43,755 nucleotides of DNA from Acidimicrobiia bacterium (GCA_040902855.1 JBBDWN010000029.1:1-43755), one strand, 5' to 3'. Positions 981-7,484 are shown, counted from the first letter of the stretch. The notes: generated from the sequence alone by a model not told the origin. Program-made: numbers and translations.

Positions 981-1061
981 TCCCGCGGTCTTCGGACTCG
1001 GCGATGTGAGCGGAATCCCGGATGGAGGCGGTTTCGGCGCGTCCGAACCGGGATCAGGGAC
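973..1061. terminator. Inverted repeat between convergent genes, candidate bidirectional terminator
   Basis: GTCCCTGATCCCG (973-985) is the exact reverse complement of CGGGATCAGGGAC (1049-1061). TTCGGAC (991-997) pairs with GTCCGAA (1041-1047). No U-tract. Confidence 0.45.
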
Positions 1062-1674
1062 GGCGGAGTCCGGGGACCTGACGGTCCACGGCATCGAGGA
1101 CCGCTCGCACCATCGCCTGGCTCGGGTTGCTGCCGACCAGGGCGGATCCGACCATCATCTGTTCGCGGCCACCGGTCACAAGTACCACCTGGGCGATGGC
1201 GACGTCCTCTGCCCCGACTCGGTGCACGGCTTCGGCGCTGATCGCGAAGGAAGCCTTCTCGTCGAGCGCCTGCCCGAGGGCGACGAGCGTGGCTTCGGCG
1301 ACCAGCCGCATCCGGGTGGCGGAGGCCGCCGGACCCTCGGCTGTACCGGTCAGCCTTTCGTCGTGCCAGTGCAGTGTGACGGTGACTTTCATCCGGGAGA
1401 AGTCGATCTCCTCGGCGACATCGTCGACGACTGGGCGGTCACCGACGGACAGTTCCTCGCCGTCGATCTGGACGACCGAGATGATCCTGCGATCGATGTC
1501 GAGATCGAACGCCGCCATCGCCACCGACTGGACGTCACGCACCACTTGTTTGGCCGGTTTTCCTGGCGTGGCGAGGACATGGACCTCGCGCGGTCTGTTG
1601 CCTTCGAGCACGATCCGGACGTTCTCGACGCCGGGGATCCGGGCGATGGCCGCTTCGAGTGCCTTGACATCCAT
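1054..1674 (-). CDS. Hypothetical cytoplasmic protein (206 aa), divergent from the peptide/HD-GYP operon
   Basis: Start re-assigned to ATG 1674 (MDVKALEAAIARIPGVENVRIV...) with TACGCT -10-like hexamer 9 nt upstream. Globular alpha/beta pattern (EVHVLA..KPAKQVVRDVQS; DRRIISVVQI; GSALV...AVLDAVDR). Confidence 0.8.
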   Translation of the reverse strand: MDVKALEAAIARIPGVENVRIVLEGNRPREVHVLATPGKPAKQVVRDVQSVAMAAFDLDIDRRIISVVQIDGEELSVGDRPVVDDVAEEIDFSRMKVTVTLHWHDERLTGTAEGPAASATRMRLVAEATLVALGQALDEKASFAISAEAVHRVGAEDVAIAQVVLVTGGREQMMVGSALVGSNPSQAMVRAVLDAVDRQVPGLRRP

Positions 1675-1736
1675 GGTCAGCGGAGCGTAGCCCTCGGACC
1701 CCTTGACAACAGGGACGCGCAGGCGACCCGGGAATG

Positions 1737-1766
1737 TTGCGACTTCGTGATCTCGCCAGGTAGATT
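1737..1766 (+). promoter_or_regulatory. Candidate housekeeping-sigma promoter for the leader/peptide/HD-GYP transcript
   Basis: TTGCGA (1737-1742), 18-nt spacer, TAGATT (1761-1766). Confidence 0.45.
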
Positions 1767-1801
1767 GCACCGTGGTCGGTCTCACACAGGGGGGCCGGCG
1801 G

Positions 1802-1983
1802 AACCGGGATCGCTGCCCGGTTGGGAGGTGGGCGGACCTGTAATAGGTGGGGCCTCACATTGACAAGTGAGGTTTCCCGGCTCGTTTACGAGTCGGGAAT
1901 ACGGGGAGAGCCCGGCGACGGATCCTTCCATCGATGATTACACCGAAGCGGAGCGGAACGACGCGTCGACAGATGTGTCGGCG
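1802..1983 (+). other. Hairpin-rich non-coding region (candidate structured 5' leader or ncRNA)
   Basis: Stems AACCGGG/CCCGGTT (1802-1822), CCTCAC/GTGAGG (1853-1872), TTCCCGGCTCG/CGAGTCGGGAA (1874-1899, one G-U) and CGTCGACA/TGTCGGCG (1964-1983, one G-U), inside a ~340-nt intergenic gap in an otherwise tightly packed window. Confidence 0.45.
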
Positions 1984-2013
1984 AGTCTCAATTCACCGAC
2001 GAGGTGATACCGG

Positions 2014-2103
2014 ATGAAGGCACGCCTGGTCCGGATTCTTGCTGCGGCCGGAAGCCTCGCCACGCTCATAGTGGCTGGCTCGGCTTCCCTGAAGATCGGT
2101 TGA
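2014..2103 (+). CDS. Small 29-aa signal-peptide-like precursor peptide MKARLVRILAAAGSLATLIVAGSASLKIG (absent from the ORF track)
   Basis: GAGGTG Shine-Dalgarno at 2001-2006, ATG 2014, TGA 2101-2103. Basic n-region, hydrophobic h-region and a short polar tail. It lies immediately upstream of the HD-GYP genes on the same strand. Confidence 0.8.
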   Translation: MKARLVRILAAAGSLATLIVAGSASLKIG

Positions 2104-2163
2104 TCTGATCGTCGGGCATCCTCCCGCTCTATGCTCTCAGGCCAACAGAAAGACGCGCGTCGA

Positions 2164-3528
2164 GTGAACGAACGCAGAACCAAGGGACTCCTGGGGTTTG
2201 GCTCCTTCTGCATCGGTTTGATAGGGATTGGCGCGGCTTGGTACTTTCAACCCTTCCGAACTGACGCTCTGGCGATCTGGGTCCTCTTTGCCGTCGCGTA
2301 CGCCGTCTTGTCGCTTCGCTCGGTGGAAGTCAACGATCGAATGCTGGCGAGTTCGAGCGTGATGGCCATTGCGACTGCGGCGACCTACTTTGCGCTTCGA
2401 GGAGACGGAGCAGCGACTGCCGTGGTCATGATTGCTGCCTTCGGTCCATTCGACTCCGGTGACTTCAAGAAGCGGCATATCTTCCAGCCTGCTTTCAATT
2501 TCGGGCTGCTGACCCTGTCCGCGCTCGCATCTGGCGTCGTGGTCGACTTCCTGTTGTGGGGCGATCCAGACCGTGGCCGTGCGGCACTCCTCGATGTCGA
2601 CCCGTCAGGTGGAGTGGCCTTCTTCCAGGTGGCAGCGGTCGGTGCCGCTGCAGCAGCTGTGTACGCCATCACCAACTTCGCCGGCCTGCGGATCGGCGTC
2701 CGGATCGCATATGGAAGGCGAAACGTGATGCCGTGGTCCGGGCTCGGTGTCATTCTCGGATCAATGACCGTGATGGGAATACTCGGTGGGATGCTGGGAG
2801 CGGTCCTCGTATTGGAGGAGTCAGTTGCCTTCCTCGCGCTGATCGTCGTTGTGTATGGCACAGGCCACACCGTGTTCACCTCGTACGCTGAACTGCGTGT
2901 GGCGCATGAGTCCACGCTCCGGGGATTCGTGAAGACGCTCGAAACCCGTGACTTGTACACGCGCGGTCACACGGAACGCGTTGCATATTTCTGTCGGCTG
3001 GTCGGATCAGAGCTCGGCTTCACGGGAACACAGCTCGAGCACATGCGCTGGGCCGCTTTGATTCATGATATGGGCAAGTTGGCTATCCCGATCGAGCTCA
3101 TGCAAAAGCAGGGCAAGCTGACGGATGACGAGTACCGGCGACTTCGCACCGCCACCCATAAGGTGGACGACCTTCTTTCCGAGGTCGACTTTCTTCGTCC
3201 GATGGTCGACGTCGCCAGCGGGGCACATCCGAGCTTGCCGAGCGAGGACTACGGGCAGGTGGGCCACCACCACACGACAAAACCGACGCTTGAGCAGAAG
3301 GTGCTGGCGGTGGCGGACGCATTCGATGCCATGACCAGCACACGCGGATACCGGATGGCGATGAGTCAGAAGGTGGCGCTTCAGACCCTCAAAGAGGATT
3401 CGAGTCCTCTGTACGACGCGGATGTGGTCGACGCGCTCGCTCTCGCCCTGGGGGATGTCGGTGAGACGTACGGACCACCGCACCTCATGACATCTGAATT
3501 GTCCGAGGAGGTTGCGAGTGGTCGATGA
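2164..3528 (+). CDS. Multi-pass membrane protein with C-terminal HD-GYP-type domain (degenerate)
   Basis: Several hydrophobic helices, then ETRDLYTRGHTERV, HDMGK and VADAFDAMTSTRGYR. HHE and GYP motifs are not intact. Start is GTG 2164 or ATG 2131. Confidence 0.85.
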   Translation: MNERRTKGLLGFGSFCIGLIGIGAAWYFQPFRTDALAIWVLFAVAYAVLSLRSVEVNDRMLASSSVMAIATAATYFALRGDGAATAVVMIAAFGPFDSGDFKKRHIFQPAFNFGLLTLSALASGVVVDFLLWGDPDRGRAALLDVDPSGGVAFFQVAAVGAAAAAVYAITNFAGLRIGVRIAYGRRNVMPWSGLGVILGSMTVMGILGGMLGAVLVLEESVAFLALIVVVYGTGHTVFTSYAELRVAHESTLRGFVKTLETRDLYTRGHTERVAYFCRLVGSELGFTGTQLEHMRWAALIHDMGKLAIPIELMQKQGKLTDDEYRRLRTATHKVDDLLSEVDFLRPMVDVASGAHPSLPSEDYGQVGHHHTTKPTLEQKVLAVADAFDAMTSTRGYRMAMSQKVALQTLKEDSSPLYDADVVDALALALGDVGETYGPPHLMTSELSEEVASGR

Positions 3529-4774
3529 CTCACGACCTCACCTGATGTGGATAGCGTCAGCATTGCTTCCGCTGGCGTCGCTGGGCGTGGGTGTGACGCT
3601 GGTGATTCCGCTGACGCCGACCACTCGGTTCGCTGTGGGCGTGGCCTCAGTCTGCTTCACGCTTGCGTCCCTCATTCAGGTTCCGACGACAGGGCGAAGC
3701 AAGTACACCGCGGCGTACTTGGTGGTGGCGTCGATTCCGTTCGTTCGGACCGGGGGAGTGCCCGTGTTTACGTTCACGAGTGCCGTCGCAGTGTTGACGT
3801 TCGGAGTCGGACTCTCGTGGATCTTGCTTGCTGCCCGGGGCGACGATCAGCGTGGAGTTGCGCTTGTAATCATCAAGCGCCTTTTTGCACACGTCGCATA
3901 TCTCGTGGTTTTCTACGGCGTCCGATCGGTTCTGATGGATTCGGAGCTGGGGACGTGGGCGGACGCGATTCTTTTCGCATGCGCCGCCGCCGGTGCGTTC
4001 GCCGCCGAACTGGCATCCAATGCAGTGTTCCGCGTCGGTTCGGGCGGCCGTCCTCGTCTGTACGTGGCACTCGATACTGCGCGTGACTTCCGGGTGTTCC
4101 TGTCCCTGGTGGCGTCAGGCGCCTTGTTCGGAATTGCGTTCGAGACCATCGGTTGGTGGTCGCTCTTGTTGGCCGCCCTTCCCTACGCCTTCGCCCACGG
4201 GGCGTTTCGGCGGTACGGGGACGCCCGACGGACGTACTCGCAGACGATGCGATCTCTCGCCAGGATTCCGGAGGTTGCGGGGCACTCGGATCCTGGGCAC
4301 GCCGCTCGGACGGCTGACTTGGCCGTCGGGGTGGCCGCCGAACTCGGGCTGCGACCGCGCGACGTGGACACGGTCGAATACGCCGCCCTGCTTCACGACA
4401 TCGGTCGGATCTCGCTGAACGAGCCGAGCGTCCTCCGCATGGGGTTCACAGACAGCGACATCGCCAGATGGGGTTCGGAGATCGTGGGGGAGACCTCGTA
4501 TCTCGCCGAGGTCAGCGACGTCGTGCTTCGCCAGCACGAGCCGTATCGGAACCCTGGCATGGAGAGCAGCGAGGACGTGCCGATCGCCGCCAAGATCGTC
4601 AAAGTCTGCAGCGCGTACGACGAGTCCACCCATGAGTTGGGGTCCTCACCGCTCGAGTCGATGGAGAAGCTGCATCGCGGTTCGGTCTACGACTACGACC
4701 CCGAAGTGGTGGCGGTGCTCCGGCGGCTGCTCGAACGTCGCGGCGAGTTCGACCGGCCGGTCAGCCGCCGTTGA
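3518..4774 (+). CDS. Second multi-pass membrane protein with degenerate HD/HD-GYP-type domain
   Basis: GAGGAGG RBS at 3505-3511, GTG 3518 overlapping the upstream stop. TM helices, then GHAART, LLHDIGRI, RQHEPYR, IVKVCSAYDE and YDPEVV. Confidence 0.85.
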   Translation: MVDDSRPHLMWIASALLPLASLGVGVTLVIPLTPTTRFAVGVASVCFTLASLIQVPTTGRSKYTAAYLVVASIPFVRTGGVPVFTFTSAVAVLTFGVGLSWILLAARGDDQRGVALVIIKRLFAHVAYLVVFYGVRSVLMDSELGTWADAILFACAAAGAFAAELASNAVFRVGSGGRPRLYVALDTARDFRVFLSLVASGALFGIAFETIGWWSLLLAALPYAFAHGAFRRYGDARRTYSQTMRSLARIPEVAGHSDPGHAARTADLAVGVAAELGLRPRDVDTVEYAALLHDIGRISLNEPSVLRMGFTDSDIARWGSEIVGETSYLAEVSDVVLRQHEPYRNPGMESSEDVPIAAKIVKVCSAYDESTHELGSSPLESMEKLHRGSVYDYDPEVVAVLRRLLERRGEFDRPVSRR

Positions 4775-5353
4775 TCACCGACCCCGGGTCGCCGACCCGC
4801 CCTGCAGTTTCACGCCTGGCTTGAACCAGCGGACGGGGCGTCGGAGTTCGGCTTCGAGGAAGCGTCCCAAACCCACCGCCAGGAAGACGTCGCCGATCGA
4901 GATCACCGAGCCCTGGTTGGCCATCCGGATCGGGATGACGTCGGCGAGGAACGACAGCATCGTGTCTGCGTCTAGTTCCGTGTGCTTGGCGGCATTGGTG
5001 AGATCGGGTCCGCCCGGGGCGTATCCGGCCGCTACTTCGATCGCCCCTTCGAGGACCGGCATGCCGCCGTTGAGTGCGATGACGGTGAAGTTGAGCAGCA
5101 CACCCACACCCGCCAACCAGAGACCGGAACGGTCTCGGTTGAGGATCATCAACGCAAGAAGCGGGAGGTAGGAGGTCAGCACCAGGTAGAACCCGACGTC
5201 GGGATCTATCCGGATTGCGATGCCCTGCATGGCGAAACCGAGGGGCAGCAACCACCACATCTTCAGCCTGATGTCGGCGAGATTGGTGAGACGTCCCCCA
5301 CGTAACACCGCAACGGACATCGCCACGAAGAGGACGATGACAAGCCACAGCAT
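4775..5353 (-). CDS. DUF5317-like membrane protein, putative LspA-like intramembrane aspartic peptidase
   Basis: RGGRLTNL near the N-terminus, N..NGGMPV, FLADVI and SIGDVFLAVG motifs recognised as DUF5317. TAGCGT -10 lies 9 nt upstream of the ATG. Confidence 0.8.
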   Translation of the reverse strand: MLWLVIVLFVAMSVAVLRGGRLTNLADIRLKMWWLLPLGFAMQGIAIRIDPDVGFYLVLTSYLPLLALMILNRDRSGLWLAGVGVLLNFTVIALNGGMPVLEGAIEVAAGYAPGGPDLTNAAKHTELDADTMLSFLADVIPIRMANQGSVISIGDVFLAVGLGRFLEAELRRPVRWFKPGVKLQGGSATRGR

Positions 5354-5401
5354 GCGGTGGGAACGCTATCACAGGCAGTTCCGGCCAGAATGTGCGATCT
5401 G

Positions 5402-6166
5402 ATGGTCATCTACGAAATCTCCGCCTCGGTCGCAACGCTCACGATGAACGATCCGGAACGCCGGAATCCGCTTGGCTCCGAGACCATCGAGGGTCTCATC
5501 GACGGGCTGCAGCGGGCACTGGACGATCCGCAGGTGTCGGTTGTCGTGATCACAGGCGCCGGCGATGCGGCCTTCAGCGCCGGAGGGGATCTGGCGTCTG
5601 GATTCTTCGAGGATCCCGTGGCGAGACACTCGGAGAGGGGACGGTTCGCCGATCTCCTGAGGCTCTTGTGGAGTGGCGGGAAGCCGACGGTGGCTCGCGT
5701 CAACGGCCATGCGCTCGCCGGCGGTTTTGGGCTGGCGGTGGCCTGTGACATCACTCTCTGCGTGGACGACGCGAAGCTGGGTGTGCCCGAAGTTCGCGTC
5801 GGACTCTGGCCGATGATGATCACGGTGGCGCTGGCGCGGGCGATGCCGCAGAAGGCGGCCCTGGAACTGATGCTGACCGGTCGGACGATCACTCCGAACG
5901 AGGCGCTTCGGCTCGGTGCAGTGTCACGGGTGGTTCCCCGTTCGGGGCTCGACTCCGCTGTCGAAGAGACGGTTGCGTCGTTACGGAATGCGCCTTCGAG
6001 CGTGATGATCGGACGCGACGCCTTCATGTCCGTGGCCTCGACCGATCCGGACACGGCCCTTGATCGACTCCAGGGTGGGTTGACGGCTGTCGCATCCACC
6101 CGCGACGCTCGCGAAGGGGTCAGCGCGTTTGTCGAGAAGCGTCCGCCCTCATTCGGCCAGCAGTGA
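5402..6166 (+). CDS. Enoyl-CoA hydratase/isomerase family protein
   Basis: AFSAGGDL, VNGHALAGGFGLAVACD, PEVRVG and DAREGVSAFVEKRPP crotonase motifs. Start probably ATG 5402. Confidence 0.9.
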   Translation: MVIYEISASVATLTMNDPERRNPLGSETIEGLIDGLQRALDDPQVSVVVITGAGDAAFSAGGDLASGFFEDPVARHSERGRFADLLRLLWSGGKPTVARVNGHALAGGFGLAVACDITLCVDDAKLGVPEVRVGLWPMMITVALARAMPQKAALELMLTGRTITPNEALRLGAVSRVVPRSGLDSAVEETVASLRNAPSSVMIGRDAFMSVASTDPDTALDRLQGGLTAVASTRDAREGVSAFVEKRPPSFGQQ

Positions 6167-6206: not shown

Positions 6207-6923
6207 ATGCGCAGAAAGATTCGAATCGCCGGCTTTGCCATGGTGTGGACCGGGGTGTTGACCCTGGGAATCGTTGCGTATCAACTCGTCGTGACTGACT
6301 TCCTCAACGATCGCGTACAGGAGGAGGCACGCACCGAACTGGTCACCGGCCTCGATGAGCGTCGGGACACCCTCGAAACGCCGGTGACCGTGACCGTTCC
6401 ATCACAGACCACGGATACCACCCAGGCCCCGGTCGTCGAGACGATCGACTTTCACCCGGAGGACGCGGTAGAAGAGGGCGATCCTTTCGGCGTCATTCGC
6501 ATCCCATCGATCGAACTGGACTGGGTGCTCTTCGGTGGGGTTCTCCCGGCGACGTTGAACCAGGGTCCTGGGCACATGCCGTGGACCCCGCTCCCGGGCC
6601 AGCCCGGCAATTCCGTCATCTCGGGACACCGGACGACGTATGGAGCTCCTTTCTTCGACCTCGACCTGCTCGAACCAGGCGACACCATCGAGATCGAGAC
6701 CGCGATCGGAGTTCACACCTACACGGTCCGAGACACCATCGTCGTCACCGCCTACGACGTATGGGTCACCAATCCCAAGCCGGGGGCGTGGCTGACGCTC
6801 ACGACCTGTCATCCCAAGTTCTCGGCCGCCCAACGGCTCATCGTCCAGGCCGAACTCACCGACGGGCCCAACCTCGACTATGCCCAGTTTCTCTTCGACA
6901 CCCAGTTCAGCGCCGTCTCCTGA
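6207..6923 (+). CDS. Class E sortase
   Basis: N-terminal TM anchor, GHRTTYGAPF, catalytic LTLTTC followed by R (QRLIV). TAGCCT -10 lies 8 nt upstream of the ATG. Confidence 0.9.
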   Translation: MRRKIRIAGFAMVWTGVLTLGIVAYQLVVTDFLNDRVQEEARTELVTGLDERRDTLETPVTVTVPSQTTDTTQAPVVETIDFHPEDAVEEGDPFGVIRIPSIELDWVLFGGVLPATLNQGPGHMPWTPLPGQPGNSVISGHRTTYGAPFFDLDLLEPGDTIEIETAIGVHTYTVRDTIVVTAYDVWVTNPKPGAWLTLTTCHPKFSAAQRLIVQAELTDGPNLDYAQFLFDTQFSAVS

Positions 6924-7484
6924 TCAGCCGCCGATCGCCCGGCTCAACTCCACGGCGGTGACGCCACCCGCCTTCGACCAGCGAATCGCCCCCTGGGCAT
7001 CGATGACAACGGTGAACGGCATCCCCACCGACGGATAGCGATCTCTGATGCGGCCCGTGGCGTCCATCCCGACGAGATAGCGCGGCTGAAGGTCGTCCGC
7101 CATCGCCTGGGCTTCGGAGGCGGATACGTCGACAGAGACACCGATGACGACATGGTCCGGGTTGGCGTCTGCGAAAGCCGAGAGTTCGGGAATCTCGTCC
7201 CGACAGGGGATGCACCAGCTCGCCCAGAGGTTCAGTACCACCGGCCGGCCATCCTCCGCCAGATGCTCGGAAAGCCGCCACTCGGAGCCGTCGAACGCGG
7301 CCAACACCACCTCTGGCGCCACTCCGGTGAGGCTTCCCCCGGACCCTTCGTCGCCCGGATCACCGAGTGCCTGGGCCACGAGGAGACCGATGGCGACGAC
7401 GACTACGAACACGAGTGTCAGGCGACCGCGCGCCGGCTGGAGCGGAGCCACCGGTTCGTGGAACAGTCGATCGGGGGTTGTCAT
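6924..7484 (-). CDS. TlpA/ResA family membrane-anchored thiol-disulfide oxidoreductase
   Basis: TM helix, VVLNLWASWCIPCRDEIP (CxxC) and the GMPFT cis-Pro motif. Confidence 0.9.
   Translation of the reverse strand: MTTPDRLFHEPVAPLQPARGRLTLVFVVVVAIGLLVAQALGDPGDEGSGGSLTGVAPEVVLAAFDGSEWRLSEHLAEDGRPVVLNLWASWCIPCRDEIPELSAFADANPDHVVIGVSVDVSASEAQAMADDLQPRYLVGMDATGRIRDRYPSVGMPFTVVIDAQGAIRWSKAGGVTAVELSRAIGG

Follow-up and report, generated by a model that had tools for sequence, protein, structure and literature searches.

The stretch of DNA analysed here, 43,755 nucleotides (nt) from an Acidimicrobiia bacterium (GCA_040902855.1 JBBDWN010000029.1:1-43755) and called the window at this full length, carries at positions 2014-2103 an unannotated open reading frame (ORF) of 29 codons, followed by HD1 and HD2, two genes for membrane proteins with HD-family output domains. 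To judge by its conservation and substitution pattern, this small ORF is a real coding gene under purifying selection, and according to the leader alignments it is placed inside a structured leader with a covarying helix. The explanation favoured here, to which about an even chance is given, is that the small ORF encodes a partner of the MASE9 sensor domain, that this partner would be produced jointly with the sensor by way of a leader which gates the Shine-Dalgarno sequence (SD) and couples translation to HD1-HD2, and that a membrane protein of the DUF5317 family would be an optional third component. An earlier reading of the same DNA (the original prediction) had proposed a peptide-pheromone system made of a precursor peptide, two membrane receptors, an LspA-like DUF5317 maturase and an accessory protein. 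All five of the genes it named were found in place by ORF listing of the window, which has about 65% G+C and whose relatives are metagenome-assembled genomes of Acidimicrobiia. The features of the locus are as follows (aa, amino acids; TM, transmembrane; MFE, minimum free energy).

1054-1674, minus strand: divergent 206-aa protein ("hyp243"), cytoplasmic, family unassigned; the ORF is open back to 1785.
1852-1899, plus strand: two upstream hairpins in the MFE fold, GCCUCAC/GUGAGGU around a UUGACA loop; UUCCCGGCUCG/CGAGUCGGGAA.
1902-1924, plus strand: 5' strand of the long-range helix P1, covarying.
1947-1956, plus strand: invariant motif AGCGGAGCGG (family consensus AGCGRAGCG), about 67 nt 5' of the small-ORF start.
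1960-1987, plus strand: hairpin P2, directly 3' of the motif.
1993-2007, plus strand: predicted SD-sequestering hairpin, UCACC at 1993-1997 pairing with GGUGA at 2003-2007.
2014-2103, plus strand: small ORF, 29 aa, MKARLVRILAAAGSLATLIVAGSASLKIG, with one predicted TM helix.
2102-2126, plus strand: 3' strand of P1, beginning at the small-ORF stop codon and ending 5 nt before the HD1 ATG.
2131-3528, plus strand: HD1, 465 aa, a six-TM MASE9-like domain followed by HD_5; corresponds to HdgA.
3512-4774, plus strand: HD2, 420 aa, TTG start, six TM segments followed by a degenerate HD_5; corresponds to HdgB.
4775-5353, minus strand: DUF5317 membrane protein, 192 aa, convergent with HD2.

The small ORF is preceded by the SD GAGGTGA at 2001-2007, 6 nt 5' of its ATG, and its stop codon lies 27 nt before the ATG of HD1; an SD is absent before both candidate starts of HD1 (ATG 2131 and GTG 2164). 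HD1 and HD2 overlap by 17 nt, and the stop codons of HD2 (4774) and of the DUF5317 gene (4775) abut with a 0-nt gap. Kyte-Doolittle scans gave one TM segment in the peptide, six in HD1, six in HD2 and none in the divergent protein. The gene arrangement drawn in the original prediction was confirmed in these respects: a 29-aa ORF with a ribosome-binding site, two multi-TM proteins from overlapping genes, a gapless convergent DUF5317 gene (Pfam E-value 5.9e-27) and, on the other flank, a divergent hypothetical gene (1054-1785, minus strand) without Pfam family. A simple promoter and terminator scan found none.

For the order-level sample 100 loci were fetched, 5 of which were duplicates. A frame ending in [KR][IVL][GSNDA]-stop was found at the same site in 74 of the 84 loci that reach HD1, and the 10 loci lacking it are mostly cut contigs. 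Outside the order but within the class, the leader motif together with a comparable ORF ending in ...GGA-x-x-W[KR] was found in 9 of 10 loci, and in further classes of Actinomycetota the small ORF was recovered at 34-71% G+C; relatives as a whole retain it across 30% to 73% G+C. A conserved small ORF near DUF5317 loci, for which a scan had been suggested as a check, is present in these samples, and few parts of the module are kept as consistently as this unannotated ORF of 18-31 codons. Because it is conserved among relatives, it is far from a chance ORF.

Selection was examined on the 59 copies of exactly 29 codons, 53 of which are unique at the nucleotide level. Differences at codon positions 1, 2 and 3 amounted to 31.5, 19.9 and 48.6%, and the median ratio of nonsynonymous to synonymous substitution (dN/dS) was 0.27 over 781 pairs. 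An SD of GGAGG type stood before all 16 copies checked. In an alignment of 33 copies M1 and A24 are invariant, and A16 and G22 nearly so; the peptide of the window is basic at its N-terminus, carries the small-residue motif A16...G22-x-A24 and ends in a basic/hydrophobic tail. The hydrophobic helix body with its A...G-x-A pattern is conserved from 30% to 73% G+C, and the tail, only 3-6 residues after the hydrophobic segment, is conserved between families and not diversified. Conservation at the RNA level alone was rejected as the cause of the conserved tail, since at least six codons are used at its K/R position; all three stop codons occur. A lipoprotein signal was dropped because no Cys follows the AG box of the peptide, and a sortase substrate because there is no LPXTG-like motif and the synteny with sortase and enoyl-CoA hydratase was seen only within the order. 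Tandem pairs of the small ORF, identical or nearly so, were seen in loci L190 (6731-6820 and 7114-7203), L193 (around a masked stretch), L216, L217 and L219, and such duplicates arise in several unrelated lineages.

The leader, about 230 nt in full, was compared in the same way. Of 97 loci, 89 have the motif AGCG[GAT]AGCG at a distance of 60-420 nt 5' of HD1, contig edges or masked bases accounting for the others, and its columns are invariant in the leader alignments. The two strands of the long-range helix P1, of 20-30 bp, lie about 45 nt 5' of the motif and in the interval from the small-ORF stop to the start of HD1; in the window the helix comprises 20 bp (1902-1906/2122-2126, 1910-1918/2109-2117 and 1919-1924/2102-2107). 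Its pairs covary, family f2 having clearly different complementary pairs, and the helix recurs in low-GC classes with other letters. From 58 sequences, RNAalifold recovered 13 long-range pairs. In a MAFFT alignment not fitted to structure, 10 P1 pairs were 73.5% paired against 63.4% in shuffled alignments, with a covariation of 0.317 against 0.192; none of 500 shuffles reached either value, slid partners gave 0.065-0.176, and double changes were present in 9 of the 10 pairs. The two P1 strands of the same leader pair with a mean energy of -60.6 kcal/mol, against -47.5 for strands taken from different leaders, and own strands beat all unrelated partners in 24 of 65 leaders and were among the best 5% in 39 of 65. 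RNAalifold run on two gappy MAFFT alignments returned 0 pairs in one and one trivial pair in the other, and column-wise pairing scans of the leader were blurred by register shifts.

A P2 hairpin of at least 6 pairs follows the motif in all 65 representative leaders with differing stem sequences; its z-score has a median of -1.93 and is lower than -2 in 32 of 65. A CACC-type box stands 4-9 nt 5' of AGGTG in many aligned leaders (by eye, uncounted). The two hairpins at 1852-1899 were recognised by eye in the alignment of family-level relatives with changed stem letters, and may represent either the beginning of the leader or the promoter region. Searches against Rfam 15 gave no match at gathering scores over the whole window, and at E<=10 on 1650-2200 only two chance matches to long non-coding RNAs; a c-di-GMP-II or other known riboswitch was dropped for want of an Rfam match. 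In locus L169 (genome G080, which lacks DUF5317), at about 6465-6631 on the minus strand, two copies of the motif AGCGGAGCG flank the small ORF, the first about 74 nt ahead of it and the second right after its stop, which suggests a duplicated leader unit.

The module as a whole is recurrent. HD2 adjoins DUF5317 in 97 of the 100 order-level loci, two of the three misses being near a contig edge, and the five-gene block is found again throughout the class and in further classes of Actinomycetota in varied gene orders, with all five genes co-directional in L184 and L185; that the five genes belong together, as originally proposed, is supported by this recurrence. Over 301 Actinomycetota genomes, counted among related genomes so that their independence is overstated, DUF5317 was found in 121 and the rare MASE9-like domains at about 150 places, with a survey tally of 119 genomes; a separate count for the class gave DUF5317 in 54 of its 121 genomes. 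The control genomes of Thermotoga maritima and Thermus thermophilus carry DUF5317 as well. Included in the first Actinomycetota tally and left out of the adjacency reading are the unpublished genomes G243, G269, G148, G176, G293, G214, G353, G341 and G132; the same applies, for the second, to G380, G148, G214, G176, G243 and G341. A MASE9-type gene lies at most 6 kb from DUF5317 in 25 of 40 loci sampled outside the order: 12 of 20 class-level loci (10 HD-type and 2 GGDEF-EAL neighbours) and 13 of 20 phylum-level loci (8 HD-type, 4 histidine kinases and L199). The statement, offered unverified in the original prediction, that DUF5317 often neighbours HD-GYP genes was hereby corroborated.

In these neighbourhoods the output domain varies. 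The small ORF lies upstream of MASE9-GGDEF-EAL in L145 and L146, overlaps the start of MASE9-HisKA in L188, precedes MASE9-GAF-HisKA as two copies in L190, and is divergent from a MASE9-HisKA_3 kinase in L186 and L187. By this comparison the peptide is tied to the MASE9 domain and not to the output domain, be it an HD pair, GGDEF-EAL or either of two types of histidine kinase. Since the small ORF is divergently transcribed in L186, L187, L196 and L199, it must act in trans there.

Pfam searches assigned HD_5 to HD1 (1.1e-19) and both HD (3.3e-9) and HD_5 (1.4e-8) to HD2; the HD_5 (PF13487) scores of 71.3 bits for HD1 and 35.1 bits for HD2 exceed the cut-off of 27.2, and in the PDB the HD domains could be aligned to HD-GYP enzymes of solved structure, best to V-cGAP3 (5z7c, 8.1e-20). 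The label "HD-GYP-type" given to both domains in the original prediction holds at the level of the family and fails at the level of the motifs, HHE and GYP being missing in HD1 and in HD2. In HD1 the GH, HD, H and D ligands are present, with AHP for HHE and DYG for GYP. The usual state among 77 HD1 orthologues is HH-S ... DG-x-GYG, with the first His of HHE in 54 of 77, so that the family is near-canonical and has eroded in the genus of the window. Within residues 364-377 of the window's HD1, the first HHE His is replaced by Ala (as in 6 of 77 orthologues) and DG-x-GYG by PS-x-DYG. From this comparison, the presumably active subunit HD1 is decaying in the genus of the window while the pair, the peptide and DUF5317 are retained. 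HD2 has QHE...YRNPG in place of HHE...GYP; its 89 orthologues lack the middle His, have Q[YH]E for HHE and YRxPG for GYP, and show W and P-G as newly invariant positions, a combination of losses and new invariant positions that is the signature of a conserved pseudo-enzyme. HD2 is thus likely a pseudo-enzyme partner of HD1.

In the N-terminal domain of HD1, residues E66, N68, D69, D111 and N123 are invariant. Matches to MASE9 at E<=0.01 were obtained for 7 of 20 aligned HD1 N-terminal domains, and the low-GC orthologue in L184 scores 31.7 bits (cut-off 24.3) for MASE9 and 4.7e-41 for HD_5.

The nearest described counterpart is the pair hdgA/hdgB (vnz24090/vnz24095) of Streptomyces venezuelae, which are adjacent and probably co-transcribed and encode a 6TM-HD-GYP protein and a 6TM protein with a degenerate HD-GYP domain without GYP (PMC6205966). 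HdgA and HdgB are described as membrane-bound and poorly expressed, their mutants as without phenotype and their activating signal as unknown (PMC6205966, PMC13232838). HD1 and HD2 of the window have the same adjacent 6TM pair layout with a degenerate second member, the likeness being one of description; unlike HdgA as characterised in the available excerpts, HD1 of the window also lacks HHE and GYP. In those excerpts of the HdgA/HdgB papers, and in the full-text searches, a small upstream ORF, DUF5317, a flanking 206-aa protein or a leader RNA is not mentioned. The MASE9 domain (PF20972) was defined on TM1467 and HdgA as an N-terminal polytopic domain with charged residues in the membrane core, combined with HD-GYP, HD-GYP-GAF-GGDEF and GGDEF-EAL outputs, and ligand binding within the membrane was proposed for it (10.1101/2021.11.05.467447). 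In the excerpted description, histidine-kinase outputs, a small partner ORF and a link to DUF5317, all seen here, do not figure. A full-text search found "MASE9" in this sense only in 10.1101/2021.11.05.467447, and hdgB in only two papers.

The relation between the peptide and DUF5317 was explored in 20 loci sampled from further genomes in which a MASE9-like HD gene is present and DUF5317 absent. A hidden Markov model (HMM) of the peptide matched directly upstream in 11 of these, and 7 further peptides were assigned by eye, clearly in L217, L220, L221, L228 and L229 and tentatively in L231 and L232. The peptides are of several kinds: short TM peptides ending in ...VRW (f44, f52), a TM peptide accompanied by the leader motif and the 206-aa protein (f66), a peptide ending in ...GGWQW (f39), amphipathic peptides with ...GGAG[IV]RW (f59, f78) and charged peptides with ...RRGA-x-MR[LFI] (f54, f47). 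In four f2 genomes and in G080, DUF5317 was not found even at E<=1. The hydrophobic small ORF is kept in G080; in f2 the ORF is split, and only a 6-codon M[TS]W[KR][IV]G-stop with the conserved tail is left behind a coupled upstream ORF, to which it is joined by an ATGA or GTGA overlap in three of four loci (L165, L167 and L168; in L168 the 6-codon ORF reads VNWRIG from a GTG start). As the peptide occurs upstream of MASE9-HD genes without DUF5317, the latter is not an obligatory maturase.

The favoured explanation, a peptide partner co-produced with the MASE9 sensor, can be set out as a series of predicted steps. The peptide of the window would be a single-pass membrane helix, probably with its N-terminus inside and its C-terminus outside; HD1 would be a potentially catalytic HD-GYP-family subunit and HD2 a conserved pseudo-enzyme subunit. 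When the SD is free, the small ORF would be translated and its ribosomes would reach the stop codon on the 3' strand of P1; termination there would melt P1, and HD1, which has no SD, would be translated by coupling, HD2 following through the 17-nt overlap. Peptide and sensor would thereby be produced together, and the peptide may pack against or occupy the intramembrane MASE9 domain and set its signalling state. DUF5317, whose Asn/Asp cluster is predicted at the outer leaflet, may act on the peptide in its membrane-embedded form, or together with it, and the divergent 206-aa protein is a candidate binder of the leader motif. A prediction of the complex of the peptide with HD1 residues 1-250 and DUF5317 gave no answer (score 0.01), which speaks neither for nor against.

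Small proteins of 20-50 aa with a single helix are familiar as modulators or stabilisers of a membrane partner, examples being MgrB (with PhoQ) and KdpF (with KdpABC); genes of this type lie beside the partner gene or first in its operon and are dispensable in some lineages. The small ORF has no sequence relation to them, and differs by its structured leader, its non-membrane variants and the linked DUF5317.

Several observations weigh against this explanation. A hydrophobic core is present in 56 of the 74 order-level small-ORF frames and absent in 18, and non-hydrophobic peptides also occur in families f2, f54, f47, f59 and f78, from which it follows that purely intramembrane packing cannot hold for all members. 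The 6-codon remnant of f2 behind a coupled ORF is a better fit to a cis-acting leader peptide. The trend that links DUF5317 to the membrane form of the peptide speaks for the explanation, with TM-like peptides in 41 of the 65 representatives next to DUF5317 and in 4 of the 25 loci whose genomes lack it, but it was counted by a crude rule that misses at least 3 TM-type copies (L222, L230 and L234). The same side of the balance holds the overstated independence of the genome counts and the tentative status of the assignments in L231 and L232. For family f55 the matches listed place the HD pair on one contig and DUF5317 on another (e.g. G205:C1:5168-7145 and G205:C19:11877-12275), an exception to the usual adjacency that was read by eye from match tables. 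The N-terminal halves of the window's own HD1 and HD2 gave no Pfam match to MASE9, and because both are below the PF20972 threshold their membership is by orthology only. Finally, a search of sequencing runs found the locus only in sediment and soil metagenome DNA and in no RNA run.

According to a first alternative, which appears rather unlikely, the small ORF is a cis-regulatory leader peptide only: its translation and termination would control the downstream MASE9 genes, its C-terminal residues acting on the terminating ribosome or merely placing the ribosome on P1, and the released peptide would have no job of its own. This would account for an ORF enclosed by the covarying P1 with its stop on the 3' strand before the SD-less HD1 start, for an SD that can be sequestered, for a C-terminal tail that is the best conserved part and under selection for its amino acids, and for the retention of ORF and tail in the non-hydrophobic variants, including the coupled 6-codon ORF of f2. 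However, the divergent copies in L186, L187, L196 and L199 cannot be upstream ORFs of MASE9 genes, and the histidine-kinase and GGDEF-EAL modules have the peptide without the leader motif. Nor would a mere spacer retain the hydrophobic A...G-x-A body over such a range of G+C, and the tandem duplicates in L190, L193, L216, L217 and L219 likewise speak against it.

The 192-aa protein of the window matches the DUF5317 profile (PF17248) with 95 bits (cut-off 25 bits) over 149 of 151 profile positions, and its invariant polar residues are N72, R73, N88, N95, M98-P99, D138, S152, G154 and D155. The two-Asp motif noted originally was recovered, D138 and D155 being invariant in 18 sequences. In LspA (Peptidase_A8) and GxGD (Peptidase_A24) proteases, as in DUF5317, two conserved Asp lie about 17 residues apart near or in membrane helices, and the S-x-G-D-[VI]-x-[LI] box of DUF5317 resembles the G-x-G-D box; profile-profile comparison finds no homology. 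With hhalign, 18 DUF5317 sequences against 12 LspA sequences of the same bacterial family gave a probability of 1.05%, so that the LspA-like character claimed for DUF5317 finds no support; a separate LspA is encoded in the same genome (contig C155). The comparison with Peptidase_A24 gave a probability of 0.28% (E 0.22), with only 16 columns aligned (S-x-G-D on G-x-G-D). No relative of DUF5317 was found by profile search of the PDB, no usable neighbour in the ESM Atlas, and no paper containing "DUF5317" in a full-text literature search.

On the minus strand of L188 (3986-6580), DUF5317 and an MFS_3/MFS_1 transporter were seen in one frame, followed by HEAT repeats (864 aa), and the 682-aa database protein P0001 has the same DUF5317+MFS architecture; a search for longer fused forms of DUF5317 returned 2 proteins, one of them the MFS fusion. 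This fusion hints at a transport-related role.

It has been considered, as an improbable extension, that the locus is a self-contained device in which DUF5317 would be a new kind of two-Asp intramembrane enzyme that cleaves or modifies the micro-protein at its outer-leaflet end, the MASE9 domain would sense within the membrane what state the micro-protein is in and pass this to cyclic di-GMP (c-di-GMP) turnover or phosphorelay output, and a leader bound by the 206-aa protein would gate synthesis.

The pheromone scheme of the original prediction, in which the ORF would be a precursor, DUF5317 an intramembrane maturase freeing the tail, and the MASE9 domain its sensor with cyclic-dinucleotide or phosphorelay output, must be called clearly improbable. 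It has on its side a conserved trio of short peptide gene, ~190-aa polytopic protein and polytopic receptor, found also with histidine-kinase receptors; invariant Asp/Asn of DUF5317 predicted by the positive-inside rule at the outer face, on the side of the peptide tail; the S-x-G-D box, which aligns with the catalytic G-x-G-D of prepilin peptidase as the only local hhalign match, not significant; the greater frequency of TM-type peptides where DUF5317 is present; the joint loss in f2 of DUF5317 and the peptide's hydrophobic part; and, in L188 and P0001, the fusion of DUF5317 with a transporter of the MFS_3 "secretion effector" type. The lack of LspA and Peptidase_A24 homology tells against it, as does the persistence of the peptide in most sampled families without DUF5317 (f44, f52, f66, f39, f59, f78, f54, f47 and G080), where it stays directly upstream of MASE9-HD genes; the maturase role was not upheld on this ground. 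Conversely, f1 sub-lineages keep DUF5317 though their peptide has no hydrophobic part. The role of a signal-peptide-like precursor fared no better, since many lineages keep a non-hydrophobic form, amphipathic or charged and not exportable as a signal peptide, and since the 3-6-residue tail is conserved across families instead of being diversified; a dedicated exporter or re-import system is absent from the conserved block.

In the agr system a short peptide (AgrD), a polytopic protein of ~190 aa (AgrB) and a polytopic receptor (AgrC) work together. The same three-part layout exists in the module, some relatives of which have a kinase receptor, and to that extent the agr-like architecture suggested originally stands, whereas the roles assigned by it are unsupported. 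None of the parts is homologous to its agr counterpart; an internal signal segment with recognition tails on both sides is missing from the peptide, which often occurs without DUF5317, and the output in the window is an HD-family domain.

That the ORF is a type I toxin-like hydrophobic peptide, held inert on its mRNA by long-range 5'-3' pairing and functionally unrelated to its neighbours, is scarcely credible: the 29-aa hydrophobic product, the fold-back helix enclosing the ORF, the SD that can be sequestered and a leader fold that presumably resembles hok and other type I toxin mRNAs would fit, but mobile, patchy, multi-copy toxin loci are unlike a conserved single syntenic copy beside a MASE9 gene across the phylum, the ORF is under purifying selection with non-hydrophobic variants retained, and no antisense partner was seen, no antisense search having been made.

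For the divergent 206-aa protein, 1674 is the likely start because orthologues align only from M38 of ORF 1054-1785. It consists of two domains, the C-terminal one of which (residues ~83-206) has stand-alone paralogues; it has no Pfam or NCBIfam family, no PDB relative by profile search and no TM segment, and a search of the ESM Atlas returned unnamed clusters only. It was matched in 51 of the 121 genomes of the class, 46 of them among the 54 with DUF5317 (overlap by eye), and in L159 and L175 it adjoins DUF5317 with no HD gene alongside. Modules of genomes encoding it carry the leader motif (L184, L185 with one mismatch, L197, L198, L169 and L177), which is absent in modules without it (L145, L146, L186, L187, L188, L190, L196, L199 and L147); it is because of this co-occurrence only that the protein is put forward as a candidate leader-binding factor. 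Stand-alone proteins of the C-terminal domain, of about 130 aa and without Pfam family, occur in 1-3 copies per genome in the order (e.g. G000:C175:3226-3606, in L170:3118-3615); six of these paralogue matches contain one in-frame TAG, which may be the stop of the upstream gene at the edge of the match.

Outside the module, positions 21-980 on the plus strand of the window hold an ORF of 319 aa in which an HNH endonuclease motif is recognised (Pfam HNH 2.2e-5). Its placement varies among loci (L035:6588-7505, L038:5535-6452, L085-L090 and L097), the sites being upstream of the divergent gene (window, L065), between DUF5317 and HD2 (L035) or between hydratase and sortase; it looks like a mobile HNH gene hopping in an otherwise rigid synteny. 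On the other side, an enoyl-CoA hydratase (5357-6166), a sortase (6207-6923) and a thioredoxin-like protein (6924-7484, minus strand) are syntenic throughout the order. This synteny was not seen in other orders and classes, the loci of which were scanned with the module's own HMMs only, and the three genes are probably neighbours by descent, outside the system.

The partner gene, DUF5317 and the leader offer three testable handles on the input of MASE9 sensors, HdgA and HdgB included. The analysis gives a first functional context for DUF5317 and for the unnamed family of the 206-aa protein, and brings to light a candidate cis-regulatory RNA with no Rfam entry. The recurrent grouping of these elements across many actinobacteria may reveal how MASE9 sensors receive their input.

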